64,000 nt of DNA from assembly GCA_964498755.1 (NCBI GenBank), contig CAZCIB010000005.1, positions 4,560-68,559 of the forward strand. Direction: 5' to 3'. The first letter of the stretch is position 1; every line of letters begins with the position of its first letter. Position numbers and translations under genes: made by a program. The notes under the pieces were generated by a model. It ran no database searches. It was not told the origin of the DNA and was given only the letters and a program-made list of their open reading frames with translations. This DNA comes from an uncultured Pseudobdellovibrionaceae bacterium (GTDB taxonomy: Bacteria > Pseudomonadota > Alphaproteobacteria > Micavibrionales > Micavibrionaceae). Shown here piece after piece: positions 281 through 50,626 of this stretch.

Positions 281-411
281 AACCTCGAATGAACACAAAT
301 AAATAAGGATATGCGCGAAGCGCATATCCATATCATAAACCACTAAGCGCACTAAGCTCGCTAAGACAATTGCGCCCGGAACGCTTAGTGTCCTTAGTGA
401 TCTTAGTGGTT
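281..411. repeat. Word-armed nested palindrome (family C), truncated copy: GAATG/CAAAT words, GCGCGAAGCGC mini-hairpin, ACTAAG-word hairpin
   Basis: The left half parallels 3520-3576 in layout. The ACTAAG x3 arm at 338-367 faces the CTTAGT x3 arm at 384-411. Confidence 0.8.
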
Positions 412-1614: not shown

Positions 1615-1925
1615 GGAATCTCGGAATCTCGGAATCTCGGAATATCCACCTGCATCGTCATCCCGGCGCCCTCTTCGCGCTTGTGTGCTATGGCGGATAA
1701 AAAAGCCGGGATCCATTGTTCGGTGATACGGGCAATAGCGCGATTGAATCGCAAAGACGCCAAGGCGCAAAGGCGCAAAGACTTCTTCGCGTCTTCGTGT
1801 CTTCGCGTTGAAAAAACGACGGTGTGGTTTGCGTTTGCCCATGGATCCCGTTTTTCAACGGGATGACGCAGGAGGGAAATATTCCGGGATTCCGGGATTC
1901 CGAGATTCCGAGATTCCGAGATTCC
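1615..1925. repeat. Composite nested palindrome (family C with embedded family A hairpins) filling the ffh-rpsP spacer
   Basis: Outer arms are GGAATCTC x3.5 (1615-1645) and GAGATTCC/GGGATTCC x5 (1879-1925). The inner hairpin has GCAAAGAC-type words (1751-1782 against 1789-1807). GGATCCCG...CGGGATGAC sits at 1841-1867. Confidence 0.85.
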
Positions 1926-1930
1926 GTTAC

Positions 1931-3496
1931 TCATCTCTTCTTCTTCCCTTTGTTCTTTTTTCCCGCGCCTGCGCCCATGCCGCCGAGGCCGGGCAGGCCG
2001 GAAGGGCCGCCGAGACCCGGCAGGGCATTACCGCCGAAATGGCGCGGCGTTTCCGCGAACGGGTTCGGGCCGAGCGGGCCGCTATCCTCAAGGCTGGCCA
2101 TGTCCTTGGCGAGCGCGTTCGGATCGGCGCTCTGCGCCATCAGGGCCGCGGCGTCGTCGCCCATCATGCCTTTCATCATGCCCATCATCTTGCCCATGCC
2201 CATCTTGCGCATGCGCTTCATCATGGTCTGCATCTGAAGTTGCTGTTTCACGAGCTTGTTGATCTCCTGTACGCTTGTTCCGGAACCGGCGGCGATGCGC
2301 TTTTTGCGCGACGCGTTCAGAAGGTCCGGCTTTTCGCGCTCTTTCAAAGTCATGGACAGGATAATCGCTTCCTGCCGTTTGATCATCGAGTCGTCGACGC
2401 CGTGCTCCTCAAGTTGTCCGGCCATCTTGCCCATGCCGGGCATCATCTGCATCAGCGCGCCCATCCCGCCCATCTTTTTCATCTGCTGGAGCTGCGTGAG
2501 CAGGTCGTTAAAGTCGAACTGGCCTTTCTTGAATTTTTTGGCCAAAGCCTGCGCTTTTTCCTGATCGACGGTTTCGGTCGCTTTTTCAACGAGGGAGACG
2601 ACGTCGCCCATGCCGAGAATACGACCCGCGATCCGGTCCGGGGCGAAAGGCTCAATGGCGTCCCATTTCTCGCCCACGCCCATGAGCTTGATCGGCTTGC
2701 CGGTGACCGCGCGCATGGAGAGAGCAGCGCCGCCGCGCGCGTCCCCGTCAACGCGGGTGAGCATAATCGCGGAAATCCCGACTTTCTCGTCGAACGTTTT
2801 GGCCGTGTTGACGGCGTCCTGCCCCGTCATCGCGTCGACGACGAGGAACGTCTCAACCGGGTTAGAGGCTTTCTTGACGGCTGCGGCCTCGTTCATCAGG
2901 GCTTCATCAATGGAGAGCCGCCCCGCCGTATCGAGCATCACAAGGTCGAAGCCTTCTTTGCGCGCGGTCTCCAAAGCGCGCTTCGTGATATCGACGGGCT
3001 GCTGGCCTTCGATAACGGGGAGCGTTTCGATGCCCGTTTGCACGCCGAGTTGCTTAAGCTGTTCCTGCGCGGCCGGGCGGTTGACGTCGAGCGAGGCCAT
3101 CAGGACTTTTTTGCGCTGCTTGTCCGAGAGCCATTTCGCGATTTTGGCGGTGGATGTGGTTTTACCCGAACCCTGCAAGCCGACCATCAAGTAGACGCTA
3201 GGCGGGCTTGCGAATTGCAGATCTTCCTTTTCCGCGCCGAGCGTTTCGACAAGGCAGTCATGGACGATCTTGACGACCTGCTGCGCCGGGGAGACGGATT
3301 TGATGACCTCTTGCCCGACGGCGCGGGTTTTGACTTTCTCGATGAACTCCTTGACGACGGGCAGGGCGACGTCGGCCTCCAGCAGCGCAATGCGGATTTC
3401 CCGCGCCGCCGCCTCGACGTCGGCCTCGGAGAGCGCGCCCTTGCCGCGGAGCCGGTCCAAAGCGCCGGAGAGTTTTTCACCCAAAGTCTGAAACAT
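1931..3496 (-). CDS. ffh: Signal recognition particle protein Ffh
   Basis: 521 aa with the GLQGSGKTT P-loop, DTAGR, and a Met-rich M domain (MMPGMGKM...). ffh-rpsP-rimM synteny. Confidence 0.97.
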   Translation of the reverse strand: MFQTLGEKLSGALDRLRGKGALSEADVEAAAREIRIALLEADVALPVVKEFIEKVKTRAVGQEVIKSVSPAQQVVKIVHDCLVETLGAEKEDLQFASPPSVYLMVGLQGSGKTTSTAKIAKWLSDKQRKKVLMASLDVNRPAAQEQLKQLGVQTGIETLPVIEGQQPVDITKRALETARKEGFDLVMLDTAGRLSIDEALMNEAAAVKKASNPVETFLVVDAMTGQDAVNTAKTFDEKVGISAIMLTRVDGDARGGAALSMRAVTGKPIKLMGVGEKWDAIEPFAPDRIAGRILGMGDVVSLVEKATETVDQEKAQALAKKFKKGQFDFNDLLTQLQQMKKMGGMGALMQMMPGMGKMAGQLEEHGVDDSMIKRQEAIILSMTLKEREKPDLLNASRKKRIAAGSGTSVQEINKLVKQQLQMQTMMKRMRKMGMGKMMGMMKGMMGDDAAALMAQSADPNALAKDMASLEDSGPLGPNPFAETPRHFGGNALPGLGGPSGLPGLGGMGAGAGKKNKGKKKR

Positions 3497-3517
3497 TTAA
3501 ATGTTTCCCTTTTTTTA

Positions 3518-3700
3518 AAAACCGCGAATGGACGCGAATGAACGCAAATAAAGCTGCGCGAAGCGCATTATATTTTAACCACTAAGAGCGCTAAGGACAC
3601 TAAGCGTTCCGGGCACAGTCTTCTTAGTGAGCTTAGCGCTCTTAGTGGTTATAAAAATTGCGCACTTCGTGCGCGGCATTCGCGTTCATTTGCGGTTAAA
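3518..3700. repeat. Three-tier nested palindrome (family C, most complete copy)
   Basis: Outer arms 3520-3549 / 3677-3697 (GCGAATG/GCAAATG words). GC mini-hairpins at 3553-3568 and 3658-3676. Inner ACTAAG-word arms 3577-3606 / 3622-3650 pair perfectly over 19 bp. Confidence 0.9.
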
Positions 3701-3869
3701 CAAACAAAACAACAACCAAAAAGCCGCAGTGAGCGATCCTATTCGCCGGCTGCGGTGTACCCGTGGGCACTGATGAAACCAACAGTGTCCGCTGAATTTG
3801 CATGGAAACTATGCGAAACGTTCCCATATGTCAAGGAATGTGTTTTGTTGTTAGTCATGCCCATGGACC

Positions 3870-3945
3870 GTCATTCCGGCGAAAGCCGGAATCTATAGGA
3901 CATCTAATTGATTCACTATGGATCCCGGCTTTCGCCGGGATGACG
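3870..3945. repeat. REPIN-like inverted doublet of GTCATTCCGGC-GAAA-GCCGGAATC hairpins (family A)
   Basis: GTCATTCCGGCGAAAGCCGGAATC at 3870-3893 faces GGATCCCGGCTTTCGCCGGGATGAC at 3920-3944. It lies just upstream of the dapF RBS. Confidence 0.85.
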
Positions 3946-3970
3946 TGTCAGGAGAAGAGCTGGAGGAGTA

Positions 3971-4921
3971 ATGAAATTCACAAAAATGCACGGGCTGTCG
4001 AACGATTTTATAATTGTCGATACGCGCTATAAGGGCGAGTTGCCGCCGAGGGAAACCATCGCCGCGCTCACGCACCGCAAGACCGGGATCGGCTGCGATC
4101 AGTTTATTCCCGTGTCCGCACCCAAAGACGACCGCGCGGATTGTTTTATGCGTATCCTGAACGCGCCGGATGCCTCTGAAGCCGAAGCCTGCGGTAATGC
4201 AACACGCTGCGTGGCCTCGATGCTGATGCGGGAAAAAGACACGGACCGCGTTATTATACAAACCGTCGCGGGGCTTTTGGAATGCCGCGCAAGGAACGCC
4301 GATAAAACGCTCATAGAGGTTGATATGGGCGTTCCCCGCCTGGAATGGAGCGAGTTTCCGTTAAGCGAGGCGTGCGATACGCTCTGGCTGCCGATTGATC
4401 TGGGGGATTTTGTCGCCGCCGGTCCCTCGCCCACTGCGCTAACGCTTTCACCTGGCAGTGAAAGCGAAGCTCCGTTGCCCTCTCCCACGGGGAGAGGGAG
4501 GGGCCCGGCGAAGCCCGAAGGGCGAAGACGGGAAGGTGAGGGGAGTCCCGCCGCCGTGAATATCGGCAACCCCCATTGCGTGTTCTTTGTCGACGATGCG
4601 CAGACATTTCCCGTCCGTGAAATCGGCCCGCAAATCGAACACCACCCGCTCTTCCCGCAAAAAACCAATGTGGAGTTCGCAACCGTAATCGACCGCGCCC
4701 ATATCCGCATGCGCGTCTGGGAGCGCGACACCGGCGAAACAGAGGCTTGTGGAAGCGCAGCTTGCGGCACGATGGCCGCCGCCGTCCGGCGCGGGCTCGT
4801 GGATCGGGAATGCGAGGTCATGCTCAATGGCGGCCCGCTGCAGTTTCACTGGCGCGAGGAAGACGGACATCTTCTGATGACCGGCCCGGTGGAATATGTG
4901 TTTTCAGGAGAAACTTCATAA
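3971..4921 (+). CDS. dapF: Diaminopimelate epimerase DapF carrying an in-frame ~41-codon repeat-derived insert
   Basis: MKFTKMHGLSNDFIIVD, CGNATRC and NIGNPHCVFFVDD...ACGSAACG are DapF signatures. It is 316 aa; the insert accounts for about 41 extra codons. Confidence 0.93.
   Translation: MKFTKMHGLSNDFIIVDTRYKGELPPRETIAALTHRKTGIGCDQFIPVSAPKDDRADCFMRILNAPDASEAEACGNATRCVASMLMREKDTDRVIIQTVAGLLECRARNADKTLIEVDMGVPRLEWSEFPLSEACDTLWLPIDLGDFVAAGPSPTALTLSPGSESEAPLPSPTGRGRGPAKPEGRRREGEGSPAAVNIGNPHCVFFVDDAQTFPVREIGPQIEHHPLFPQKTNVEFATVIDRAHIRMRVWERDTGETEACGSAACGTMAAAVRRGLVDRECEVMLNGGPLQFHWREEDGHLLMTGPVEYVFSGETS
4423..4545 (+). mobile_element. Family B nested palindromic element inserted in frame within dapF
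   Basis: TCCCTCGCCC...GCTAACGCTTTCAcctggcaGTGAAAGCGAAGCTCCGTTGCCCTCTCCCacggGGAGAGGGAGGGGCC...GGTGAGGGGA. It has the same core as 5856-6007 and 22216-22319. Translates as PSPTALTLSPGSESEAPLPSPTGRGRGPAKPEGRRREGEGS. Confidence 0.85.
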
Positions 4922-5308: not shown

Positions 5309-5498
5309 GAGAGGTGCTCCTTCACTGTTCTTTTAATCGATTAAATAAATTGTCTTGGCTTCTAATGTTTAAGATAGGTCTGAAATGGGATATTTTCAGG
5401 GCAGTTTTGTTACAGATTTGTAAGCATTAGAAAATGATCACATGAAGAAAACAGGGTAACAGGTTGACGTTTCGCCGGTATCGGGATATGTGTGCGCT

Positions 5499-6950
5499 AT
5501 GACAAACATAAAAAAATACGAACAAAGTTGCGAGCCTGAAAAACAGGGGCCGGAAATTGTCACGTTTGGCTGCCGCCTCAACATCTACGAGTCGGAGGTT
5601 ATGCGTGCGCACGCGCAGAATTCAGGGCTTGACGACGTTGTCATTTTCAATACCTGCGCCGTTACGAAAGAAGCCGAACGGCAGGCGCGGCAGGCCATTC
5701 GCAAGGCCCGGCGCGATCACCCGGAACGGAAAATTATCGTGACCGGCTGCGCGGCCCAGATCGATCCCGACGGCTTTGCGGGCATGAACGAGGTTGATTT
5801 TGTTGTAGGCAATGATTTGAAGTTGAAAGAAGAAGTATGGCAGGGCCTTGAGCGTCCCTCACCCTGTCCCTCACCCACTTTGCTAACGCTTTCATCTGAT
5901 GATGAAAGCGAAGCTCCGTTGCCCTCTCCCTTAAGGGAGAGGGAGGGGCCCGGCGAAGCATCGCGAAGCCGGGAGGGTGAGGGATCTGGTGAGGGACAGG
6001 GTGAGGGGCAAAACCGCCATGCGAAAATCCTCGTCAACGACATCATGTCCGTCCGTGAAACGGCCTCTCACCTGATCGAGGGGATGGAGGGCAGGGCGCG
6101 GGCATTTCTGCAGGTCCAGAACGGCTGCGATCACCGTTGCACCTTCTGCATTATCCCGTACGGGCGCGGCAATTCGCGCTCGGTTCCGATCGGGGAGATC
6201 GTTAAACAGGTCCGCGCTCTTGTTGAAAGCGGATATAAGGAAATCGTTTTCACGGGCGTTGACGTAACCTCTTACGGCCCGGATCTGCCCGGCGCGCCTA
6301 CGCTCGGGCAGATGATCCGGCGCGTTCTGGCGCTTGTGCCGGAACTGCCGCGCCTTCGTCTTTCCTCGCTCGACCCGGTGGAGATTGACGACGATCTCTG
6401 GCGGCTCATTGAAAATGAGCCGCGCCTGATGCCGCATCTCCATCTCTCGCTTCAGGCCGGGGACGATATGATCCTCAAGCGCATGAAGCGCAGACATCTG
6501 CGTCAGGACGTCATCGACATGTGCGAGCGGGCGCGCAGCTACCGCCCGGACATCGCCTTTGGCGCGGATATTATCGCGGGCTTTCCGACCGAGACCGAAG
6601 AGATGTTCCGCCGCTCTCTCGATATCGTCGAGGAATGCGCGCTCAGTTATCTGCATGTTTTCCCCTATTCGCCGCGCCCCGGCACGCCAGCCGCCAAAAT
6701 GCCGCAGGTTCCCGGCAATGTGCGTAAAGAGCGCGCCGCGAGACTGCGCGAGGCCGGGCGTGTTCAGCTTGAAAAGAACACGAGGGCGTATGTGGGACGG
6801 CGCGTCCAGGTCATCGTGGAAAAAGACGGTCAGGGGCGCACGGAGCATTTCGCCCAGGTTCAGCTTGATCAAAGCTTCGGGCAGGGTGCGCTTCTGGCGG
6901 CGGAAACAGTGGCCGCAGAAGGCGGGGTTCTGCTGGCGCAGTCGTTATAG
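5499..6950 (+). CDS. mtaB: tRNA methylthiotransferase MtaB (MiaB-like radical SAM) carrying an in-frame ~51-codon repeat-derived insert
   Basis: N-terminal MTTase domain (VTFGCRLNIYESE), radical-SAM CDHRCTFCIIPYGRG, and a TRAM-like C-terminus. dapF-mtaB-ftsY synteny. ATG at 5499; the ORF opens at GTG 5490. Confidence 0.88.
   Translation: MTNIKKYEQSCEPEKQGPEIVTFGCRLNIYESEVMRAHAQNSGLDDVVIFNTCAVTKEAERQARQAIRKARRDHPERKIIVTGCAAQIDPDGFAGMNEVDFVVGNDLKLKEEVWQGLERPSPCPSPTLLTLSSDDESEAPLPSPLREREGPGEASRSREGEGSGEGQGEGQNRHAKILVNDIMSVRETASHLIEGMEGRARAFLQVQNGCDHRCTFCIIPYGRGNSRSVPIGEIVKQVRALVESGYKEIVFTGVDVTSYGPDLPGAPTLGQMIRRVLALVPELPRLRLSSLDPVEIDDDLWRLIENEPRLMPHLHLSLQAGDDMILKRMKRRHLRQDVIDMCERARSYRPDIAFGADIIAGFPTETEEMFRRSLDIVEECALSYLHVFPYSPRPGTPAAKMPQVPGNVRKERAARLREAGRVQLEKNTRAYVGRRVQVIVEKDGQGRTEHFAQVQLDQSFGQGALLAAETVAAEGGVLLAQSL
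5856..6007 (+). mobile_element. Family B nested palindromic element inserted in frame within mtaB
   Basis: Perfect 20-bp terminal inverted repeat: CCCTCACCCTGTCCCTCACC (5856-5875) against GGTGAGGGACAGGGTGAGGG (5988-6007). Internal hairpins are GCTTTCAtctgatgaTGAAAGC and CCCTCTCCCttaaGGGAGAGGG. Confidence 0.9.
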
Positions 6951-7807: not shown

Positions 7808-8992
7808 ATGATATTCTGGCGAAAAAACAAAAATGCTCAGGAGCAGGAACAGGAAAACGCGGACGATCAGTTGCTCCATCCGAGGAACGAGCCTGAACTC
7901 GAGCCGCCGACGGAATATGAAACGGATATCGATCCGGAAACGGAGCATGAGCTCGAAGAAACCGAGAACGAGATTCTTGACGAGCTTGACTTGACGCCGG
8001 TTCCGCAGCATACGCCGCTGGAAGACGCACGTACGCATGAAGAGGAAATTGCGCATGACAGGGAAGAAGAGGGCGGCGGCTGGCTCTCGCGTCTGACGCA
8101 GGGGCTCTCGAAATCCTCGCAAAAAATCTCGCAAGGCCTTGGCGACCTCATTACCAAGCGCAAACTGGATCAGGATACGCTCGACCAGCTGGAAGAGTTG
8201 CTGATCAGCGCGGACCTTGGGCCGGTGACCGCGGCGAAGGTTGTGGCGGATTTCTCTGAAGGTCGCTTTAACAAAGAGCTCGAGGAAAATGAAATCCGGG
8301 AAGCCCTGGCGGAAAGCATCGCGAAAATCCTGGAGCCCGTAGCGAAGCCGCTCGATTTGCCTGAAAAAAGCGGCGCGCCGCACGTTATACTTGTCTCGGG
8401 CGTGAACGGCGTCGGCAAGACGACGACAATTGGCAAGCTTGCCGCATGGATGCATTTCCAAAACCACAAGAAAGTTATGATCGCGGCGGGCGACACCTTC
8501 CGCGCGGCGGCCATTGAGCAGCTCGAAGTCTGGGCGGAGCGCGCCCGCTGCGCCTTCGTCTCAAGGGAACCCGGTTCTGACGCTGCGGCTGTAGCCTACG
8601 AAGCCTTTGAAAAGGCGGCGGCGGAAGGAACCGACATCCTGCTGGTGGATACGGCCGGACGCCTGCATAACAAGGCTAATTTGATGGCGGAGCTTGAAAA
8701 GATCATCCGCGTCTTGAAGAAAAAGGATGAAATCGCGCCGCACGAGGTCCTTCTGGTCCTGGACGCAACGACGGGCCAGAACGCGCATGCGCAGGTTGAG
8801 ACGTATAAGGATATCCTGAACATCACGGGCCTGATCGTCACCAAGCTGGACGGCAGCGCGCGCGGCGGCGTCGTGGTCGGGCTCGCCGATAAATTCGGTC
8901 TGCCGATCTACGCCGTCGGGGTCGGGGAGGGCATTGAGGATCTCCAGCCCTTCCATCCGCGGGAATTCGCCCGGACGCTTGTGGGGCTCTAA
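7808..8992 (+). CDS. ftsY: Signal recognition particle receptor FtsY
   Basis: Acidic N-terminal region followed by the NG domain: VSGVNGVGKTTTIGKLA, DTAGRLHNK, TKLDGSARGG. ATG at 7808 preferred over TTG at 7775. Confidence 0.95.
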   Translation: MIFWRKNKNAQEQEQENADDQLLHPRNEPELEPPTEYETDIDPETEHELEETENEILDELDLTPVPQHTPLEDARTHEEEIAHDREEEGGGWLSRLTQGLSKSSQKISQGLGDLITKRKLDQDTLDQLEELLISADLGPVTAAKVVADFSEGRFNKELEENEIREALAESIAKILEPVAKPLDLPEKSGAPHVILVSGVNGVGKTTTIGKLAAWMHFQNHKKVMIAAGDTFRAAAIEQLEVWAERARCAFVSREPGSDAAAVAYEAFEKAAAEGTDILLVDTAGRLHNKANLMAELEKIIRVLKKKDEIAPHEVLLVLDATTGQNAHAQVETYKDILNITGLIVTKLDGSARGGVVVGLADKFGLPIYAVGVGEGIEDLQPFHPREFARTLVGL

Positions 8993-10951: not shown

Positions 10952-11171
10952 GGGGAATCGCGTGAAGTTATGAAATATATCTGCTTAAGATATTGTTTAT
11001 AAATAATTGTCATCCCGAACGCGAAGCGGAGGGATCTGTGTAAAATGGATTCTACACAGATTTCTCGCAGCAGCCTGTCCCCGCGAAGGCGGGGGCTCGA
11101 AATGACAAACATATATAAATCAATGCATTAAAGGCTCTTTGCAAATATTCATAACTTCACGCGATTACCCC
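10952..11171. mobile_element. MITE-like element with ~27-bp terminal inverted repeats enclosing a family A doublet
   Basis: GGGGAATCGCGTGAAGTTATGAAATAT (10952-10978) against AATATTCATAACTTCACGCGATTACCCC (11144-11171). CCGGATACA is present near both ends (10937-10945, 11170-11178). Confidence 0.65.
11009..11106. repeat. Family A hairpin doublet (inside the MITE-like element)
   Basis: GTCATCCCGAACGCGAAGCGGAGGGATC ... GTCCCCGCGAAGGCGGGGGCTCGAAATGAC. Confidence 0.7.
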
Positions 11172-11755: not shown

Positions 11756-12883
11756 ATGCTGGATAACGAAACATCCCGCGTTGCGCCGCTTCTGGTGCAG
11801 CTCTACGACAGTCACAAGCTCTACGCGCTGGCAAGAGATTCCAGTGATCCCGCGCGCCGCGAGCTGTCCGGCATTATTCTCGATTTGTTCCAGAGCGATT
11901 TGAGCGCGCGCGAGGCCGAGCTTATTTCCGACGTGCTGATCAATCTGATGCGCCAGATAGAGATCGACTTGCGCGCGGCTATGGCAGAAAAGCTGGCAAG
12001 ACTGGATAATATCCCCTTACGGGTTATCCTTTTTCTCGCCGCAGACGAGATCAATGTCGCCGAGCATGTCCTGCTGCACAGCCCGGTCTTAAATGATCTA
12101 GATCTGCTTTACATCATACAATCGCAGGGGCCGGAATACTGGCGGGCGATTGCGCAACGCCAAAAGCTCGCCAGCCAGGTTGTTAGCGTCCTCGCGGAGA
12201 CGCGCGATCTGGTCACGCTTAAAAATCTGGCGGGCAATGACAATATTTCACTGACGGAGAAAGCGTACGGCGTGATCGGAGAATTTGCGGAAAGCCATGC
12301 TGATCTGGCGGAAATCACTGTGCGCCGGGAAGACGTGCCGTCTGAGTTGGCCGTGCGTCTTTATCGCATTGTCGGTCATGAAATTAAAAGCCGCATAACG
12401 ACCCGCTTTCCACAAGTTAAGGCATCTGTTGAAAAATCCTACAGGGAAGCCGTTATAGATATGGTTGAAAGCGCGGAGGCGCCGCGGGACGCCTTCCTGC
12501 CCGACGAGTCGCAAATCAACGCCGCGTTTGCCGCGCGCGACGCAGGGACGCTTGGCCTGCCGTCGATGCTTGAAACATTGCGCGCTGGAAATATCCGGTC
12601 TTTTATTGCCCAGTGCGCGGTTTACACAGGATTAGCATGCCAGACAGTCGCTGAAATCCTGAGACAGGAAAACGGGCAGGGACTTGCCGTTTTATGCCGG
12701 GCAAGAGATATCAACAAGTCAGATTTTCTGACGATTTTTCTCCTGACGGGACGGATCAGGAAGGCCGAGAAAATCGTCAGCAAGACTACAATGACGCGCG
12801 CGCTCGGCTACTATGACCGGATCAGCAAGCCGCTGGCCGAGCGGATTATGAGGAATTCACAGCAGTCAGTTGGCAGTTTTTAG
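11756..12883 (+). CDS. DUF2336-like protein
   Basis: 375 aa helical-repeat protein. ...ERELISDVLINLMRQIEIDLRAAMAEKLARLDNIPLRVILFLAADEINVAEHVLLHSPVLNDLDLLYII fits my recollection of DUF2336 proteins common in Alphaproteobacteria. Confidence 0.6.
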   Translation: MLDNETSRVAPLLVQLYDSHKLYALARDSSDPARRELSGIILDLFQSDLSAREAELISDVLINLMRQIEIDLRAAMAEKLARLDNIPLRVILFLAADEINVAEHVLLHSPVLNDLDLLYIIQSQGPEYWRAIAQRQKLASQVVSVLAETRDLVTLKNLAGNDNISLTEKAYGVIGEFAESHADLAEITVRREDVPSELAVRLYRIVGHEIKSRITTRFPQVKASVEKSYREAVIDMVESAEAPRDAFLPDESQINAAFAARDAGTLGLPSMLETLRAGNIRSFIAQCAVYTGLACQTVAEILRQENGQGLAVLCRARDINKSDFLTIFLLTGRIRKAEKIVSKTTMTRALGYYDRISKPLAERIMRNSQQSVGSF

Positions 12884-12966
12884 TAGGCAGTAGGCAGTTT
12901 TCAGCAGGCAGTTGGCGGTCGATGGTCTTACTGCCAACTACCAACTACCAACTACCAACTACCAAC
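12863..12966. repeat. Word-armed palindrome (family C) between convergent genes; overlaps the DUF2336-like stop codon
   Basis: Left arm has GTTGGCAGT/GTAGGCAGT words (12863-12918). Right arm is ACTGCCAAC then TACCAAC x4 (12930-12966). Confidence 0.8.
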
Positions 12967-16141: not shown

Positions 16142-16343
16142 GGGATGCGAATAAACATGGATCTACAGCGCGCGTTGCGCGCAGATATTTTAACTACAGA
16201 GTTAAACAAGAGATAAACAGAGGGGTTTCGCGCAAACTGATATGTCTTTCTCAAAAAAAATTCTGTTTGTCTCTGCGGGCTCTGTAGTTATTAATCATGC
16301 GCTTCGCGCACAAGATACATTCGCGTTTATTCGCGCCCATCCG
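16142..16343. repeat. Three-tier nested palindrome (family C), ACAGAG-word variant
   Basis: Outer GGATGCGAATAAAC (16143-16156) against ACATTCGCGTTTATTCGCGCCCATCC (16318-16343). GC mini-hairpins at 16168-16182 and 16297-16312. Inner arms 16191-16223 / 16261-16290. Confidence 0.8.
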
Positions 16344-17879: not shown

Positions 17880-18060
17880 ATAAACCGCCAAGACGCGAAG
17901 ACGCCACAAAACACAAAGGTAACGAGAAGAAAGCTGCGCCCAGCGCTACATGTATTCAACACAGAGATCGCAGAGGGCGCAGAGTTTTTTTCAAGAGCTT
18001 GTATTCTCTGCGTTCTCTGCGCGCTCTGTAGTTTTAAAAAACGCGCTGCGCGCAACTGCA
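17880..18060. repeat. Family C element: CCAAGACG/CGAAGACG-word arm plus CGCAGAG-word hairpin
   Basis: AACCGCCAAGACGCGAAGACGCC at 17883-17905. Inner arms 17957-17984 / 18006-18033. GC mini-hairpins at 17932-17947 and 18042-18056. Confidence 0.8.
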
Positions 18061-18207
18061 TAAAAGCCGGAGCAGGATGGCGCATAAATCATTCAATTCA
18101 CTATATTTTAAAAGGGGGCGCACACTTTTGCATAACGTGTGCGCCCACGCTCGTGGGCTTTTGGACGAGCTTCGCAAGTAACTTATGTCGTTTATTCAAG
18201 CCTTGAC

Positions 18208-18294
18208 GTCACCCCCGCGTAAGCGGGGGTCTGGCAAGCCTCAAACAATGAGAAGGTTGTTGTTTGCCGGATGCCCGCCTAAAGCGGGCATGAC
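18208..18294. repeat. Family A hairpin doublet
   Basis: GTCACCCCCGCGTAAGCGGGGGTCTGG ... CCGGATGCCCGCCTAAAGCGGGCATGAC. Confidence 0.8.
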
Positions 18295-18297
18295 GGT

Positions 18298-18471
18298 TCA
18301 GTGGTTTTGTCTCTTCTCAAACCGCATCACAACCGGCATATGATCCGAGCCCATGGCCGGGCCGACATGTTTGTACGTGGGAGTCAGGCTTGCGCTGAAG
18401 AGGATATGATCAATCGGGATCTGAAATATCGGTAATAAAAACACGCTCGGCCAGGTCGGCGCGGCGATCGG
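18298..18471 (-). pseudogene. C-terminal remnant of an endonuclease/exonuclease/phosphatase (EEP) family gene
   Basis: Manual translation gives ...PIDHILFSASLTPTYKHVGPAMGSDHMPVVMRFEKRQNH*. IDHI...SDHxPV is the EEP C-terminal signature. The frame closes upstream at TAG (18472-18474) with no N-terminal domain. Confidence 0.5.
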
Positions 18472-18489: not shown

Positions 18490-18677
18490 TAGCCGCGCGT
18501 CTTGCGCGCTATTCTTTAACCACAAAGTCACAAAGAACACAAAGATGAAGGGAAGAAAATTGCGCGCAGCGCAAAAAGCCCTGTCGGCCCGATTTGCTAA
18601 TGTCATTGTTATTTAAGCGCGCTTCACGCGGGCAAAAGAACTTTGTGCCCTTTGTGGCTTTGTGACTTTGTGGTTCA
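18490..18677. repeat. Family C element, ACAAAG-word variant
   Basis: AACCACAAAGTCACAAAGAACACAAAG (18518-18544) faces CTTTGTGCCCTTTGTGGCTTTGTGACTTTGTGGTT (18641-18675); the first 18 nt are exactly complementary. GC mini-hairpins at 18493-18509, 18561-18575 and 18616-18632. Confidence 0.85.
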
Positions 18678-20917: not shown

Positions 20918-21133
20918 AAACCGCCAAGGCGCCAATACGCCAGGCTTTCCGGTCTTCCCGCGCCGCAGGCGCATTATTTTTGAACCACGGCGATCACAGC
21001 GTACACAGCGAAGTAAGCGCAAACGTCGCTGTGATCTCTGTGCGCGCCGTGGTTTAAGAAATACAAGCCGTCTTATTACGCTTCGCATGCGTATGCCTTT
21101 TAGGATTCTTGGCGTCTTCGCGTCTTGGCGGTT
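20918..21133. repeat. Three-tier nested palindrome (family C), CCAAGGCG / CACAGCG-word variant
   Basis: Outer arms 20918-20944 / 21108-21133. GC mini-hairpins at 20959-20974 and 21079-21093. Inner arms 20982-21010 / 21027-21055. Confidence 0.85.
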
Positions 21134-21769: not shown

Positions 21770-22074
21770 ACTTCTCTCTTTTCGGTTTGTGTGGTTGATA
21801 TCAAGTCTACCGCTTTTACTCTTTCGGGACGACATCGGCCTGCGCGCTCTGTTATCAACAAGCGAACGGATTGGCGCCTCCCTCCATCTGATATCCGGCT
21901 TATTTCTGGCGGCTGTTCAAAGCGTATGTCTCCCTGTCTTCCGGTTCTCTTCGGGAGCAAAATATCGCCGCATTTCAATGCCGGTAACTCAAGATGTGAG
22001 AACGAACATAGCGCAGAATTCGTAAAAATTCAAGTTCTTATTTCGGAAATATGAAATTGGGTGTGAATATCAGA

Positions 22075-22208
22075 TGCGAGTTGTGAGTTGCGAGTTGTGA
22101 GTTGTGAGTAGCGAGTAGCGAGTAGCGAGTAGCGAGTAGCGAGTAGCGAGTAGCGAGTAGCGAGTTGTGAGTGGTGAGAAGCGAGTAGTGAGTTGTGAGT
22201 TGTGAGTG
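22075..22208. repeat. Heptanucleotide microsatellite (~19 units of GAGTTGT / GAGTAGC) forming the expanded left arm of a family C element
   Basis: Read directly: gcgagtt gtgagtt gcgagtt gtgagtt gtgagta (gcgagta)x6 gcgagtt gtgagtg ... The short complementary arm CAACTCCCAACTCACAACTCACAACTAC is at 22320-22347. Confidence 0.9.
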
Positions 22209-22215
22209 GACAGAA

Positions 22216-22319
22216 CCCCTCACCCACTTCGCTACCGTTTTCCCGTAGAAAAACGAAGCTCCGTTGCCCTCTCCCTAGGGAGAGGGAGGGCCCCATGCGT
22301 AGCATGGGAGGGCGAGGGG
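22216..22319. repeat. Family B nested palindromic element, intergenic copy
   Basis: CCCCTCACCCACTTCGCTACCGTTTTCccgtaGAAAAACGAAGCTCCGTTGCCCTCTCCCtaGGGAGAGGGAGGGCCCCATGCgtaGCATGGGAGGGCGAGGGG. Confidence 0.85.
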
Positions 22320-22343
22320 CAACTCCCAACTCACAACTCACAA

Positions 22344-25244
22344 CTACCCCGTAAACCCGACATGATGCGTGATCGCGGAAGAGACATCCTGAATCATGCG
22401 GTGCATTTTCACGAGCGGGTCGAAAATCCGCGTCTGTTCCTCGGCGTAGATTTCCTTTTCCTCGGCGCTGTAATCGGAGGCTTCGCCGTAATCGGCGGAC
22501 GCGCTCTCATCCGGATGGACCGGAAAAATTTCGCGTAAAAGAATATCGGCCGCCGGGATGTTCAGCTTGTAGACCTGTTTTAAAAGCTGGTTGCGCGAGA
22601 CGTCATGTTGCGGCGAATAATAAGGAATTTCCGTCGCCAGCAGGTAAATCTCCTGGATCAGGCAAAGCCGGACCGCGTGCAGGCAGGCCAGCGCCGTGTG
22701 TTCTTCTTCATTGCAAACGCCGGCGTCCGACTCAAAGCGCTTGAGAATGCTCATATCCGCGTAAATCTTGCGGAAAACGTGCTGGATGTCGACGGAGGGG
22801 CTGATGTGTTCCAGGATTTTGGCGACGCTGCCGCAGCGGCGCGCGTTAACGGGATCGCCGGCGTGCGATTCCCGGATCAGCCAGAACATCGGGTCGAGCG
22901 TATCAATATAGGCTTTCATCACGTCAGCCTGCGATTTGCAAGCCCCGAAGAGCGCGAGCCGCATCAGGGAGCGGAAGCGCGGCGAGTTTTCCTTCATAAA
23001 GCTGTAGAAGGCCGGGTCCGTGCGGACGGCGCTGCCAAGGCCTGAGAACGTATTCACCAGAACGCCCATCTGCGCGAGAACGGCGTTGTGCGGGATGGCC
23101 CGGTATTCGCGCGCCATTGGCGCCTTGTTCTCCGTTTTGGAATAATCGTATTGCCGTTTGGCGGCGCGGCTGCCTGTACCGCGCATGAGGTTCATGCCGA
23201 ACGCGGAGAGCAGGGAGCCGTATTGGGGGCTTTGCATCAGCTCGTCCTGAAACTCCTTGATAATGGTCAGGAATTCGGTAATGCCGGCGCGGTCCTCGTA
23301 ATAGGGATCGCCGGGTTTTTCCTGCGTTTCTTCTGTCCAGTAGCCCAGTATGCGCGTCAGCGCCGCCAGAGACGTTTCCTTTGACATGAAGTAAAGATAC
23401 CCGTCGCCGCCCTGGAAACTGCTTTCCTGGATATAGGGCATATTGCTCTCTTTCAGTTCGGCCAGGAAATGCGGCGGCGTCAGATATTCCATACGCGCGC
23501 GCATGCTCTCGGGATGGCCGCCGCGCCCTGAAGATTCCCCGTGCGTGTCAAAGCACAGCATGGCCGTATCATCCAGCTCGTATTTCACCATCAGTCTGGC
23601 GATACGCTCTTTTAAACGTTCAATAGAGCCCGACGCGGGCGTCTGCCCGATATAGCGGCCTGCGTCAGAGTAACCGGTTTGCAGGCACAGGCGTCCGCGC
23701 GCGCGGGCGTAACTGCGAAATTCAGGAACTTCCAGAAGATGATCGACGATCCGGCTCGCGCGCTTCAGGGCGCGTTCCGTTTCAAAGAGAGGGCAGATAT
23801 CGACGTGGTTTTCAATTCCGAAACGCCGCGCGTAATAAAGCGCGGACATCACCGTGAATGAACTTTCCGTTTCCGCGATCAGAAAGCGGACCGGCGTGTG
23901 GTTGTCAACATGCTGTATGATTTGCTGCATCAGCATGAACAGGCGGATCGCCGAGGCTTCTTCTTCAAGAATATTGCCAAAATGGATATTGCAGGGGCCG
24001 GCCTGGCGGAACTTGCTTAACAGCTTGTCCATATAGGTCTGGCGGAAGCGCGGGTCGGCGGGATGCGTGGTTAATTCGACATATTTGCGGATGGCGTTAT
24101 GGACCTGCGCGGCGTTGATCCTGAAATGGACATGCGCGCGGGATAAGCCGAAGTTTTCCAGCTGCGAGAGCAGTACCAGCAATTCAGTTTTGTCTTCTTC
24201 GTTTTTCGTCTTCTTGACGGCCTTCTCAATAACGTTGATGAGGGGGCCGGGACCAAGCATGCGCGCGTCCCGGCTTGCCATAAGCTCGCGCGAGGCGCGC
24301 TGTAACTTGGGGTGCCCCGGTTCGCGCTCGCCGTCATAAGCGGAAAAGAATTTGTGATGCTCGCGCAAGGGGCGCAGGCTGTTGTCCAGCAGATTCAGCG
24401 CTGGCGCCAGAGCGCTGTCCAGCGTTTCGGACTTTGCGCATAGCAGGGCCAGTTTATTGCGGTAGTATTCCGTCTGCTGGATTTGCAAATCGAGTTTCGC
24501 CGCGAATGTCGCCGTCCAGTTGATATCATTGCGGCCATCGAGGTCGAAGCCGACCCATGTCGCGATCGTGCAGAGCTTCGGGCGGATTTCCGTCCATCTG
24601 TCCGGATAGAGCTCCTGCGCGACGATGAACGCCGTTCTGTAGAGCGTTTCAACGCTGTCATGCAGGTTACCGATGGCCTCGTGCGAGAATTCTTCCTCAT
24701 CGCGCAGGGTCGGCGGCTCGAAATTTATTGCGGCGCTTTTGATCAGGTTGCTAGCGGCTTCGTCTTTTTCGTTCCCGGGCGCGGCGGCGTAATGCGCCAA
24801 TGCGCGGTTAAGCTCGCGAGTCATGCCGAATGTCGGATGCGCCGTAAACACGAAGCCGTAAAAGACCTGTGACAGCGCGGACTGAAACGTTTCAAAATCC
24901 CGTTTTGCGCCGTCATCGAATGCAAGGTTTTCAATGATATCGGATAGAGCCCCGGTATTTTTGCGCGCGTCCGTATCTCCAAGATAGCGGGCCAGCTTCT
25001 CGCCGCGCTTGATCAGGCCGTCTTGCGCCAGCTCTTCGGTTATCCGTTGCAGGTCATCCGTCGAGAGCTGTCCGCTGCGCAACTGGTCGTTCAAGTAAAG
25101 CGACAGGCGCAGGACCGGCGAAATAAAAGGATTGAGTTCCCGCCGCGCAAAATACTCGGCGTATTGCGTCTTGATTCCGTCGAGCAGGGCGGGCGCGGGT
25201 TCAGGGGATTGTTGTTTTATGGGCGTGACGCGTTCTTCGGACAT
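22344..25244 (-). CDS. ppc: Phosphoenolpyruvate carboxylase, divergent form
   Basis: 966 aa. FVFTAHPTF (compare VLTAHPTE), GFDLDGRND (compare GxDRDGNP), GYSDAGRYIG (compare GYSDSxKDAG), THGESSGRGGHP (compare FHGRGGxxGRGGxP), YRAIPHN (compare LRAIPW), and a C-terminal ...FTG. Confidence 0.7.
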   Translation of the reverse strand: MSEERVTPIKQQSPEPAPALLDGIKTQYAEYFARRELNPFISPVLRLSLYLNDQLRSGQLSTDDLQRITEELAQDGLIKRGEKLARYLGDTDARKNTGALSDIIENLAFDDGAKRDFETFQSALSQVFYGFVFTAHPTFGMTRELNRALAHYAAAPGNEKDEAASNLIKSAAINFEPPTLRDEEEFSHEAIGNLHDSVETLYRTAFIVAQELYPDRWTEIRPKLCTIATWVGFDLDGRNDINWTATFAAKLDLQIQQTEYYRNKLALLCAKSETLDSALAPALNLLDNSLRPLREHHKFFSAYDGEREPGHPKLQRASRELMASRDARMLGPGPLINVIEKAVKKTKNEEDKTELLVLLSQLENFGLSRAHVHFRINAAQVHNAIRKYVELTTHPADPRFRQTYMDKLLSKFRQAGPCNIHFGNILEEEASAIRLFMLMQQIIQHVDNHTPVRFLIAETESSFTVMSALYYARRFGIENHVDICPLFETERALKRASRIVDHLLEVPEFRSYARARGRLCLQTGYSDAGRYIGQTPASGSIERLKERIARLMVKYELDDTAMLCFDTHGESSGRGGHPESMRARMEYLTPPHFLAELKESNMPYIQESSFQGGDGYLYFMSKETSLAALTRILGYWTEETQEKPGDPYYEDRAGITEFLTIIKEFQDELMQSPQYGSLLSAFGMNLMRGTGSRAAKRQYDYSKTENKAPMAREYRAIPHNAVLAQMGVLVNTFSGLGSAVRTDPAFYSFMKENSPRFRSLMRLALFGACKSQADVMKAYIDTLDPMFWLIRESHAGDPVNARRCGSVAKILEHISPSVDIQHVFRKIYADMSILKRFESDAGVCNEEEHTALACLHAVRLCLIQEIYLLATEIPYYSPQHDVSRNQLLKQVYKLNIPAADILLREIFPVHPDESASADYGEASDYSAEEKEIYAEEQTRIFDPLVKMHRMIQDVSSAITHHVGFTG

Positions 25245-30652: not shown

Positions 30653-30719
30653 GTCGCCTCTGCGAAAGCGGAGGCCCAAAGTTACAGAATTTTGGATCCC
30701 CGCCTTCGCGGGGATGACA
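30653..30719. repeat. Family A hairpin doublet
   Basis: GTCGCCTCTGCGAAAGCGGAGGCCC ... GGATCCCCGCCTTCGCGGGGATGAC. Confidence 0.75.
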
Positions 30720-30741
30720 TGGAACCCAAAGGGGGCAGGGG

Positions 30742-35840: not shown

Positions 35841-35892
35841 GTCATCCCCGCCAACAAGCATGTCCCCGCGCAGGCGGGGGGGGGCGGGCATG
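35841..35892. repeat. Family A hairpin doublet (compact)
   Basis: GTCATCCCCGCCaacaagcatGTCCCCGCGCAGGCGGGGGGGGGCGGGCATGAC. Confidence 0.7.
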
Positions 35893-35955
35893 ACAGGTCT
35901 GGGATGGAAATCAAACGTGGACGGAGTAAAACAGGCTTTTTATCTCCGGCCCCGT

Positions 35956-39466: not shown

Positions 39467-39467
39467 G

Positions 39468-39603
39468 TCCGAGTTGCGAGTTGTGAGTAACGAGTGATAA
39501 GAGCTTATTTAAGCTGGGAGTAAGTTGCAAGTGCGAGCCAAAAAGAAAGTAACGAGCTGTCTTTAAAGACAACTCGCTACCCACAACTCGCGGCTCGCGA
39601 CTT
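39468..39603. repeat. Family C element, GAGTTGT/GCGAGTT-word variant (same words as 22075-22347)
   Basis: Left arm GTCCGAGTTGCGAGTTGTGAGTAACGAGTG... Right arm ...CAACTCGCTACCCACAACTCGCGGCTCGCGAC. Central GTCTTTAAAGAC palindrome. It abuts the accA start and the xerD stop. Confidence 0.8.
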
Positions 39604-46335: not shown

Positions 46336-46496
46336 CCTCTCCCTTCAGGGAGAGGCAACGAGGCTTACCGTTTTCGAAGAAAACGTTAGCCGCAGTGGTG
46401 AGGGACAAGGCAATGGCGATATCCCTCACTCGCTCAGCTATAGCTTTGCCTTCGCCAAAGCGAAGCTTCGCTGCCCTCTCCCTGAAGGGAGAGGGA
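46336..46496. repeat. Two family B half-elements arranged head-to-head (a ~160-bp palindrome)
   Basis: 46336-46405 is the reverse orientation of the CCCTCAC...GCTAACG-hairpin-...CCTCTCCC-GGGAGAGG module. 46422-46496 is the same module in forward orientation. Confidence 0.8.
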
Positions 46497-50541: not shown

Positions 50542-50561
50542 TTATAACGAAATCTTGTTTA

Positions 50562-50626
50562 GCATCCCGATGGATGCCGGGATCCAGCCGAATAAAAAGC
50601 TCTGGATCGCGGCTTTCGCCGGGATG
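50562..50626. repeat. Family A hairpins
   Basis: GCATCCCGATGGATGCCGGGATCC ... GGATCGCGGCTTTCGCCGGGATG. Confidence 0.7.

Follow-up and report, generated by a model that had tools for sequence, protein, structure and literature searches.

Two described systems come closest to the subject of this report, which is an element at positions 3518-3700 of a 64-kb stretch from a Micavibrio-like alphaproteobacterium (hereafter the window; statements about the window as a whole hold within these 64 kb). In Coxiella's intervening sequence (IVS), an S23p open reading frame (ORF) lies within a 28-bp stem of terminal inverted repeats, and tandem GACAGAT heptamers are present in numbers that vary among strains. 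This IVS is cleaved by RNase III within its stem and is regarded as selfish, with its origin and mobility unresolved (PMC4990558). The second system comprises the short tandemly repeated repetitive (STRR) sequences of cyanobacteria, 7-bp repeats that fold into hairpins between genes; their function is unknown, with stabilization of transcripts and coupling of translation as proposals (PMC2670836).

Words of 6-8 nt, set in arrays, make up the arms of the element at 3518-3700, a palindrome with two tiers. Across the window, ~10 related elements are found. The long stem of terminal inverted repeats with tandem heptamers that typifies a 23S rRNA IVS, as known from Coxiella, Leptospira, and others, is seen again at 22072-22345, 39468-39603, and 12863-12966, and a PF05635 ORF lies between inverted heptamer arrays in a relative (L081, see below). 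In contrast, the window elements lie in mRNA spacers rather than in 23S rRNA helices and carry no ORF, and most have a word period of 8-10 nt and a different partner gene family, GxxExxY. The likeness to STRR sequences resides in intergenic tandem 7-bp words whose inverted arrays give hairpins, with structure kept while sequence varies, and it extends to Fischerella loci where AACC-CACTAAG / CTTTGTG-GGTT hairpins lie beside a GxxExxY gene. However, STRR sequences have been described from heterocystous cyanobacteria only, with no gene link found in the literature, whereas the window host is an alphaproteobacterium, in whose elements the head is AACC/GGTT and the period for the most part 8-10 nt.

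Elements of the REP, BIME, and REPIN types are also palindromes located between genes, and their units join up as mosaics or inverted dimers; CGTC REP dimers nested in longer palindromes are on record (PMC3733652). The arms studied here differ in being word arrays, including tandem heptamer arrays, that have neither a GTAG or CGTC tag nor a short conserved stem, and in being associated with a PD-(D/E)XK nuclease gene rather than with RAYT. The missing tags and the different form of the stem speak against REP/RAYT membership. REP, BIME, Correia, and RPE families do not describe the elements, in line with a first-pass annotation, made from the sequence, in which no described family had been recognized.

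Miniature inverted-repeat transposable elements (MITEs) and transposons share with the window elements repeated, inverted end motifs and an excess of gene-less derivatives over gene-bearing copies. The ends of Tn7 and Mu, and those of the eukaryotic Ac/Ds and En/Spm elements, likewise carry several short repeated motifs per end in inverted orientation. The differences are that no recognized transposase and no target-site duplication were seen, that no direct repeats flank the inspected units, that the partner gene encodes a nuclease, and that the units measure ~60-200 nt, or ~500 nt with the gene.

Our preferred explanation, which we judge fairly probable, is that the element at 3518-3700 and its window relatives are gene-less, MITE-like derivatives of widespread small hairpin cassettes that resemble IVSs. 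In kind they belong with known IVS-like and STRR-like hairpin elements. What appears to be undescribed is their spread across phyla, the nuclease family that partners them, and the conserved AACC/CAC-N-AAG code. No publication linking GxxExxY genes to such word arrays was found, and literature searches with the word sequences themselves turned up only primers. At the gathering threshold, Rfam has no match anywhere in the window, rRNA included, and the elements sit between protein-coding genes.

Arms that enclose a small nuclease gene

At at least seven of the array-bearing metagenome loci, arms placed 440-560 nt apart surround a TIGR04256/PF13366 ORF. This ORF encodes 126-137 amino acids with the motif GPGLLES.YE...ELK...QLLTYL...GLLINFN and matches TIGR04256 'GxxExxY protein' and Pfam PDDEXK_3 with E values of ~1e-40 to 1e-44. 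Searches with tblastn found the GxxExxY gene in 15 loci that had been selected for their arrays and also in L205, a locus from a relative in the Micavibrionales (Ffh 77%) whose retrieval took no account of arrays. The order in L205 is the ffh stop codon, ttttGAACC-ACCAAG-AC-ACCAAG-AC-ACCAAG, the ORF, CTTGGTG-T-CTTGGTG-C-CTTGGTG-GTGA-gaatttttt, and rpsP. When longer autonomous elements were sought between the arms, nothing past the ~130-amino-acid ORF was encountered. In the predicted RNA folds of two full cassettes, the arms are paired and the ORF occupies the loop.

An independent sample was composed of homologs of the L205 protein that were gathered by protein similarity alone, with the DNA fetched afterward. 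Inverted arrays of the CAC-N-AAG type (RC-N-AAG) surround the gene in six of the seven close homologs, and in the seventh, on viral contig L209, the arrays are built from different words. At least three words are present on both sides of the gene in four of the seven sampled loci and on one side only in two more, whereas a degenerate word test found arrays on both flanks of none of 3450 control ORFs. This word-run test was used instead of a score for 6-mers shared between gene flanks, which gave no separation from controls. GxxExxY homologs in viral contigs are few (four loci), and two distant viral homologs (32%-35% identity) lack word arrays.

The named sources of homologs include Alphaproteobacteria, Rhodocyclaceae, Draconibacterium, Marivirga, Luteolibacter, Cloacimonetes, Fischerella, and Hapalosiphon. 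Heads of the window type, meaning an A/T-rich flank plus (A/T)ACC on the left arm and GGT(T/G) plus an A/T-rich flank on the right arm, border the gene in L205, L222, L225, L219, and L213, and the combination of an AACC head with a CAC-N-AAG heptamer recurs in Bacteroidota, Cyanobacteria, and Alpha- and Betaproteobacteria. By sequence comparison, then, the association of gene and arms holds across phyla, and the turnover of words and of copy number is rapid.

The arrays have also left a mark on protein annotation. Among the best 120 annotated homologs (P0254-P0373), 29 begin with (M)NHQDTKTP, which is the translation of AAC-CAC-CAA-GAC-ACC-AAG-ACA-CCA, or the array AACC-ACCAAG-AC-ACCAAG. This N-terminus is either a product of gene calling, with the ORF run on through the array, or a real tail that the array encodes.

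The GxxExxY protein is probably an active small nuclease, because residues D89, E99, and K101 (the PD-(D/E)XK triad) are kept and the predicted model is of a generic PD-(D/E)XK-like kind. These residues and the GPGLLE..YE motif are retained in 41 homologs, and the AlphaFold model has a pLDDT of 89. A fold search with this model gave weak matches to lambda exonuclease, Cas4, and MGME1 (E > 0.01), a sequence search of solved structures gave a weak Cas4 match only, and PADLOC returned no notable match to a defense system. The fold thus points to a minimal PD-(D/E)XK nuclease and offers no further hint of mechanism. A survey of the PD-(D/E)XK superfamily lists the function of PDDEXK_3 as 'unknown' and reports multiple transfers (PMC3424549).

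In Fischerella thermalis strains that carry an identical GxxExxY protein (L213-L218, 1615-1840), either two or three tandem gene-less hairpins follow downstream. The same strains differ in the number of CTTTGTG words and in the use of ACTAAG or ACCAAG variants. Since these differences lie beside an identical gene, the arrays evolve at strain level.

A sister type of cassette pairs heptamer arms with a different gene. In L081 (Ffh 86%), a PF05635 '23S rRNA-intervening sequence protein' gene located between leuD and leuB is framed by TTGCGAGTTACAAGTTCGAGTTGCGAG and CTCGTAACTCGAACTCGTAACTCG, which are inverted CGAGTTR arrays, and the framing word is the GAGTTRY heptamer of the window elements at 22072-22345 and 39468-39603. 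By these shared words and layout, the heptamer elements of the window have the features of 23S_rRNA_IVP cassette arms. Further PF05635 genes in the fetched loci are accompanied by arrays of yet other words.

The inner-arm pattern in metagenomes

The inner arm type of AACC followed by three CACTAAG words, searched as the pattern AACCACTAAG-N3-4-CTAAG-N3-4-CTAAG, occurs on at least 120 metagenome contigs. The environments sampled are soils, lakes, sea, sludge, and gut, and the contigs range in GC content from 0.30 to 0.64. Contigs of at least 5 kb have prokaryotic coding density, and their arrays are intergenic except in one case. One contig, L190, could be given a taxonomy and is from Bacteroidia, based on an ABC-F protein with 87% identity to one in a Bacteroidia metagenome-assembled genome (MAG). 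By NCBIfam, the genes on these contigs have housekeeping functions only. From this distribution, the elements are evidently not lineage-specific.

Among 126 distinct copies, the dinucleotide CA, which the pattern did not force, precedes word 2 in 110 and word 3 in 111, and thus the repeating unit is a heptamer, CACTAAG. Successive words are spaced by 8 nt and then by 9 nt (98 and 105 of the 126 copies, respectively), and the 5' flank is 70%-88% A/T. An inverted partner, defined as at least two CYNNGTG words within 250 nt, accompanies 68 of the 126 copies compared to nine in an upstream control, and its words are frequently CTTTGTG, CTTCGTG, or CTCTGTG. Spacers between the words are complementary between arms at 54% of positions versus 44 +/- 5% for permuted partners, which indicates that word and spacing rather than perfect pairing are conserved. 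Many array copies are solo or gene-less. A BLAST search of PLSDB plasmids with a consensus hairpin gave no match, for which low-complexity masking is a possible reason.

One orthologous spacer in full, decayed, and empty states

The window encodes rimM, rpsP, ffh, dapF, a MiaB-like protein, ftsY, pgk, a sigma-32-like factor, CarD, and PEP carboxylase. Judged by Ffh, the nearest genomes are Micavibrio-type alphaproteobacterial MAGs with 72% identity, and protein-database relatives reach 86% and 84%. The genome of Micavibrio aeruginosavorus has been described as practically without repeats or mobile elements and as free of insertion sequences (PMC3189940). In that work, however, a repeat had to measure 50 bp or more at 97% identity (PMC3189940), a threshold that elements of the window type would escape.

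The spacer between ffh and rpsP was compared across syntenic loci fetched from relatives, and this single orthologous site was found in full, decayed, and empty states. It is a plain spacer of 45-51 nt with no element in L204 and L208, and it contains CGTC-type REPs in L083 and L206. A single-tier ACGAAG/ACAAAG hairpin with ACC...GGT heads is present in L004, which has a second such hairpin after rpsP, and in L005 the hairpin is built from TTGGAAAT words. A complete GxxExxY cassette fills the site in L205 and in L222. Lastly, L081 has (CCGAATCT)4 flush with the ffh stop codon, plus (CTTGGTG)3-GGTGA. This last array is a right arm of the L205 type from which the gene is gone, and we take its comparison with the full L205 cassette as direct evidence of arms that remain after the gene is lost. 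The presence and absence of elements at orthologous spacers had been proposed as a check on the first-pass annotation, and the empty (L204, L208), full (L205, L222), and arm-only (L081) sites provide it.

As judged from these loci, the ffh-rpsP spacer is a hot spot in which elements turn over within 15%-30% protein divergence. Whole arrays at this site differ by word-level substitution, as in CGGAATCT versus CCGAATCT; the former makes up the outer array of the window element at 1615-1926, which is (CGGAATCT)6 and lies flush with the ffh stop codon.

Small inserted genes are also seen in the ffh-rpsP-rimM region of relatives (L206 8514-9350, L205 7271-7708, and L081 11736-12490). Among them are small ORFs that lack annotation, a GNAT acetyltransferase, and a domain resembling endonucleases (DUF559/MTES_1575) that is fused upstream of rimM. 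Selfish or accessory genes in general appear to use this operon as a landing site.

Anatomy of the element at 3518-3700

The tiered word-array anatomy that had been reported for 3518-3700 holds, and its parts are listed in Table 1. The repeat finder gives 90% complementarity for the outer arms (3520-3540 / 3677-3697) and 91% for the inner arms (3573-3604 / 3623-3654). Three GCGAATG/GCAAAT words stand in the outer left arm and two in the right, and the inner ACTAAG/CTTAG words are spaced 9-10 nt with 18 nt between the arms. As a single-stranded RNA, the element has a folding energy of -100.6 kcal/mol versus -51.0 +/- 3.9 kcal/mol for shuffles (z = -12.7). The two GC tri-loop hairpins pair with each other in the minimum-energy fold, making 3518-3700 one long palindrome. 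Each half-arm is composed of two direct modules, both of them an A/T run followed by AACC and words.

Table 1. Coordinates and composition of the element at 3518-3700, other window elements, and gene-bearing loci of other organisms
Feature	Position or locus	Strand	Composition and setting
Outer left arm	3520-3549	+	A-run, AACC + GCGAATG-GAC-GCGAATG-AAC-GCAAAT; inverted repeats; pairs with 3677-3697 in minimum-energy fold
GC tri-loop mini-hairpin 1	3555-3567	+	TGCGCGAAGCGCA, then inward TTATATTTT; terminator-like on + strand; also able to pair with hairpin 2
Inner left arm, GxxExxY-cassette type	3573-3604	+	TTTT + AACC + ACTAAG / GCTAAG / ACTAAG words, reading TTATATTTT-AACC-ACTAAG-AGCG-CTAAG-GAC-ACTAAG; repeat finder
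Loop, 18 nt	3605-3622		Place of the ~130-amino-acid ORF in gene-bearing versions; no gene remnant by profile search of the six-frame translation
Inner right arm	3623-3654	+	CTTAGT words + GGTT + ATAAAA; repeat finder, fold
GC tri-loop mini-hairpin 2	3660-3674	-	GCGCACTTCGTGCGC, GCGCACGAAGTGCGC on minus strand, then inward AATTTTTAT; terminator-like on - strand
Outer right arm	3677-3697	+	CATTCGC-GTT-CATTTGC + GGTT; repeat finder, fold
Paralogous copy	281-411	+	Outer words TCGAATG/ACAAAT, GCGCGAAGCGC hairpin, ACTAAG inner palindrome 338-365 / 384-411; downstream of rimM
Composite, ffh-rpsP spacer	1615-1926	+	Outer (CGGAATCT)n arrays adjoining ffh stop; inverted CGTC-type REP pair; inner GCGAAGAC/GCAAAGAC palindrome
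Heptamer-array hairpin	12863-12966	+	GGCAGTW / CCAACTA x5; between convergent DUF2336 and pgk genes
Three-tier copy	16142-16343	+	GCGAATA outer words; GC hairpins 16168-16182 and ~16300-16310; AACT-ACAGAG inner palindrome; between divergent genes
Copy without outer right partner arm	17880-18060	+	AACC-GCCAAGAC-GCGAAGAC outer left arm; GC hairpins; CAGAG/CTCTG inner palindrome 17962-18028
Copy enclosing two GC hairpins	18490-18677	+	Arms AACC-(CACAAAG)3 / (CTTTGTG)4-GGTT
Two-tier copy	20918-21133	+	AACC-GCCAAGGC outer arms; inner GAACC-CACAGCG palindrome 20977-21060
Long GAGTTGY/GAGTAGC heptamer arrays	22072-22345	+	Inverted CAACTCA partner; adjoins PEP carboxylase stop codon
GAGTTGC/GAGTTGT heptamer-arm hairpin	39468-39603	+	Whole spacer between two tandem minus-strand genes, stop codon to next start
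Full cassette, Micavibrionales relative	L205		ffh-rpsP spacer
Gene-bearing locus, alphaproteobacterial MAG	L222-224		ffh-rpsP spacer; TAACC-(ACCAAG)3 ... CTTGGTG-T-CTTTGTG-T-CTTGGTG-GTT-taaaattttt
Gene-bearing locus, Rhodocyclaceae	L225-226		trpD-trpC; four words per side
Gene-bearing locus, Draconibacterium	L219-221		Between two methylmalonyl-CoA mutase subunits; GAAC-ACAAAG-AC-GCAAAG-AC-ACTAAG, gene, CTTTGTG-A-CTTAGTG-T-CTTCGTG-TT-aaaaaa
Gene-bearing locus, Fischerella	L213-218		Gene plus 2-3 tandem gene-less hairpins
Gene-bearing locus, viral contig	L210		Heads ATTCACC...GGTGAAT

On the upstream side of ffh, the element stops 23 nt short of the start codon, beyond the ribosome binding site, and is flanked by ffh on one side and by a conserved noncoding block at 3722-3800 on the other. 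Because this block is kept upstream of ffh in relatives, 3518-3700 was probably inserted into the ffh leader. A search of 3480-3975 against Rfam at E <= 1 yielded nothing but generic hairpin look-alikes that scored far below threshold, miRNA precursors for the most part.

The block at 3722-3800 is of interest in its own right. It lies on the minus strand, as does ffh, reads ...CAGTGCCCACGGGTACACCGCAGCCGGCGAATAGGATCGCTCACTGCGG CTTTTTGG with a terminator-like hairpin at its end, and is kept in L083, L204, L205, L206, and L208; L004 has a related block that has diverged. No Rfam match was found for it even at E <= 1, and it may be an unannotated small RNA or an element of the ffh leader.

Other elements in the window

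All of the further copies that the first-pass annotation had listed are present, with the amendment that the outer right arm of the copy at 17880-18060 is missing. Five copies align over the whole layout with the anchors AACC, the GC hairpins, AAC(C/T)AC, and GT(G/A)GTT, which bears out the proposal that layout defines the family. The AACC...GGTT heads with their A/T-rich flanks are likewise confirmed, and so is the observation that word cores pair and spacers do not; read from the sequence of 281-411, words match at 20 of 21 positions and spacers at none of four. This copy shares its outer words, hairpin, and inner ACTAAG palindrome with 3518-3700. The right arm of 20918-21133, taken as its reverse complement, is near-identical in its first 24 nt to the left arm at 17883-17906. 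Fold z-scores for three further copies are -7.4, -9.1, and -10.9. The period is 7 nt in three window elements and 8-10 nt in the rest.

The suggestion that words are swapped while layout persists needs to be divided. Distinct families do exist, since GAGTTGY goes with a different gene, and yet sequence is more conserved than had been thought. On comparison of the words, much of the apparent swapping is a free third position (ACTAAG, ACCAAG, ACAAAG, ACGAAG), and the rest is distinct cassette families.

Chance origin of the window elements is excluded. The window contains 34 word arrays, compared with 5.8 on average and 13 at most in dinucleotide shuffles, and six strictly paired arrays compared with none in 200 shuffles. 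Runs of at least three [AG]C-N-AAG words number nine in the 64 kb and six in 1.42 Mb of other alphaproteobacterial loci, a density ~30 times higher. Arms with three to four [AG]C-N-AAG words at 7-11 nt spacing and inverted CTT-N-G[TC] partners, as in GxxExxY cassettes, occur in the window, and cassette-type heads stand at 3573-3580 / 3647-3654, 338/411, 18518/18675, and 20919/21133. Window elements and GxxExxY cassette arms are therefore alike, at the level of sequence, in head, word, spacing, flanks, and intergenic habit.

Every copy in the window is intergenic. Copies adjoin the stop codons of ffh (at 1931) and of the PEP carboxylase gene (at 22344), fill a complete spacer (39467-39601), and in two instances lie between divergent genes (3518-3700 and 16142-16343), and hence a plain terminator function is not the whole story. 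The GC mini-hairpins fit a permissive terminator pattern that was found 50 times versus 27 expected. Termination, like the binding of a protein, may be a secondary property of the elements.

Three other kinds of repeats were noticed. CGTC-tagged REP hairpins (CGTCATCCCG...CGGGAT) are a distinct second family, often in inverted dimers, and occur at 3869-3945 and further at ~1656-1712, 1848-1880, 11008-11104, 18207-18300, 30690-30722, 35845-35895, and 50560-50625. Two of them are nested within the 1615-1926 element, and the CGTC-1 REP family is known from M. aeruginosavorus (PMC3733652). A small hairpin family, CCTCTCCC-N4-GGGAGAGG, is found at 22268-22290, 46336-46355, and 46475-46494 and in relative L206 at ~8430-8480, within or next to other repeat elements. 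Finally, inverted CCCTCACC word arrays at 5854-6007 lie within the MiaB-like ORF at 5490-6950, between its UPF0004 and Radical_SAM domains. Since the arrays sit in this interdomain gap and the ORF encodes 486 amino acids compared with 416-422 in relatives, the MiaB-like gene seems to have received an in-frame insertion of a palindromic element.

Origin of the elements and alternative explanations

A full cassette consists of an A/T run, (A/T)ACC, and three to four CAC-N-AAG heptamers spaced 8-10 nt on its left, a ~130-amino-acid PD-(D/E)XK 'GxxExxY' nuclease gene at its center, and three to four CTT-N-GTG words, GGT(T/G), and an A/T run on its right. In the sister type, heptamer arms (GAGTTGY here) surround a gene for the four-helix-bundle 23S_rRNA_IVP protein. 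Such cassettes occupy intergenic spacers, presumably transcribed, often in conserved operons and flush with stop codons. Once the gene is lost, the two arms would persist as a long hairpin, and tiers may arise when one unit lands in, or duplicates into, the center of another or when units duplicate in tandem. In RNA, the arms would form a long stem that may be cut by RNase III as in 23S rRNA IVSs. Processing of this kind could make an insertion into an operon tolerable or harmless, leaving stable stem ends and perhaps stabilized ends on the flanking mRNAs. The words may serve as recognition sites of the encoded nuclease or of the machinery that copies the cassette, which would explain why the word is conserved and the spacers are free. 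Arrays may grow and shrink by slippage, with the arms kept similar by selection on words and by arm-to-arm correction. Both the RNase III processing and the nuclease-driven mobility are inferences.

A non-autonomous mobile element was among the options originally entertained for 3518-3700, and it is a reasonable one. The original interpretation was supported in part, with the correction that gene-bearing counterparts exist. Since the same arms enclose a GxxExxY or a 23S_rRNA_IVP gene, the elements are tied to 23S rRNA IVS-type cassettes and to STRR hairpins.

Several points weigh against a cassette origin. The 64-kb window contains no gene of the GxxExxY or 23S_rRNA_IVP kind, whether whole or as a remnant, so that the link depends on arm similarity and on relatives, and so that the window elements can only be gene-less derivatives. 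No gene-bearing counterpart was found in the sample for the GGAATCTC, GCGAATG, and GGCAGTW/CCAACTA words, and the independent sample is small (seven loci and 29 N-terminal peptides). The metagenome sample was chosen by its ACTAAG array and is thus biased. Neither a target-site duplication nor an 'empty site' polymorphism with exact boundaries was seen, and the mobility of units is thus undemonstrated. Causality could also be reversed, with the gene homing into preexisting hairpins of this type. The GC tri-loop hairpins with inward T-runs fall outside the cassette model, which also leaves the 8-9-10 nt spacing unexplained. When the fetched loci were searched for the window words GCGAATG, GGAATCTC, and GAGTTGY, there were no matches or one chance match.

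Among the alternatives, the one that survives best, which we nonetheless consider unlikely, regards the hairpins as structural RNA modules of the host, which arose and evolved in place as stabilizing or processing stems, terminators, or devices for translational coupling. The GxxExxY and IVP genes would then be later guests in the loops, and the window elements would never have been cassettes. Placement at stop codons and in spacers between tandem genes suits such modules, as do the A/T-rich flanks, the terminator-like GC mini-hairpins with inward T-runs, the abundance of solo or gene-less arrays, and the transcript-stabilizing or translation-coupling roles proposed for STRR hairpins (PMC2670836). 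However, one head and one heptamer accompany one gene family in four phyla or classes at a protein identity of ~55%-65%, and this co-occurrence argues against independent local origins. Two window copies lie between divergent genes, the simplest state of the ffh-rpsP spacer is free of hairpins, and the barely complementary spacers of the metagenome copies indicate that pairing is not the main thing conserved.

It is also conceivable, but improbable, that the arrays are iteron-like and are bound by a DNA- or RNA-binding protein of the host, with their inversion related to multimer formation and with no mobility involved. Constant words with variable spacers, a spacing of 8-10 nt that amounts to about one helical turn, and three to four words per arm are what such sites might look like. 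On the other hand, the many different words of the window would need many proteins, the distribution crosses phyla, and the tight link of the arrays to one small nuclease gene family favors the cassette's own protein as the binding partner. Readings of the words as DnaA boxes, CtrA boxes, attC sites, or stop codons in all frames were considered and rejected for misfit at the consensus positions.

There is even less to recommend the view that these are REP or REPIN-type elements moved by RAYT (IS200/IS605-like) or classical MITEs of insertion sequences. The elements are intergenic, palindromic, and present in multiple copies, and genuine CGTC-tagged REPs occur in the window, some nested in the elements in the manner recorded before (PMC3733652). 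Yet the arms carry 25-50 nt of tandem words rather than an 8-13 bp stem and have neither tag, copies are not near-identical, no transposase or RAYT was noticed among the annotated window ORFs, target-site duplications were not seen, and the M. aeruginosavorus genome is reportedly free of insertion sequences (PMC3189940). Neutral slippage, by which microsatellite-like arrays would chance to lie near their complements, certainly acts, as array length and word variants change fast between strains, but as a full explanation it is effectively refuted by the paired arrays that shuffles do not reproduce, by the density of RC-N-AAG runs, and by a head motif, spacing, and flanks that are kept across phyla.

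Implications

With a cassette origin of the window elements as the preferred reading, a broader proposal can be formulated, which we advance tentatively and consider less likely than not. The CAC-N-AAG arrays would be the recognition sites of the GxxExxY protein, and nuclease and arrays together would constitute a hitherto unrecognized class of self-propagating mini-cassettes found across phyla. These would spread by homing or by hairpin- or cruciform-directed movement, with the RNA stem removed by RNase III, and the class would unite STRR hairpins, ORF-containing rRNA IVSs, and the nested palindromes of alphaproteobacteria.

The GxxExxY (PF13366/TIGR04256) family is large, with thousands of homologs returned in a protein search. 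Should inverted arrays of a single conserved heptamer prove to frame its genes in every case, this would supply a testable substrate for the family and would point to a likely selfish lifestyle. It would also suggest a common origin for STRR hairpins and for ORF-bearing IVSs, elements that have raised questions of origin and mobility since the early 1990s. The arrays vary fast enough to serve as strain markers, and they also cause annotation artifacts such as spurious MNHQDTKTP N-termini and spurious ORFs across arrays. Hairpins inside essential operons, such as those at ffh-rpsP, at trpD-trpC, and between mutase subunits, may shape the processing of the mRNAs that contain them.

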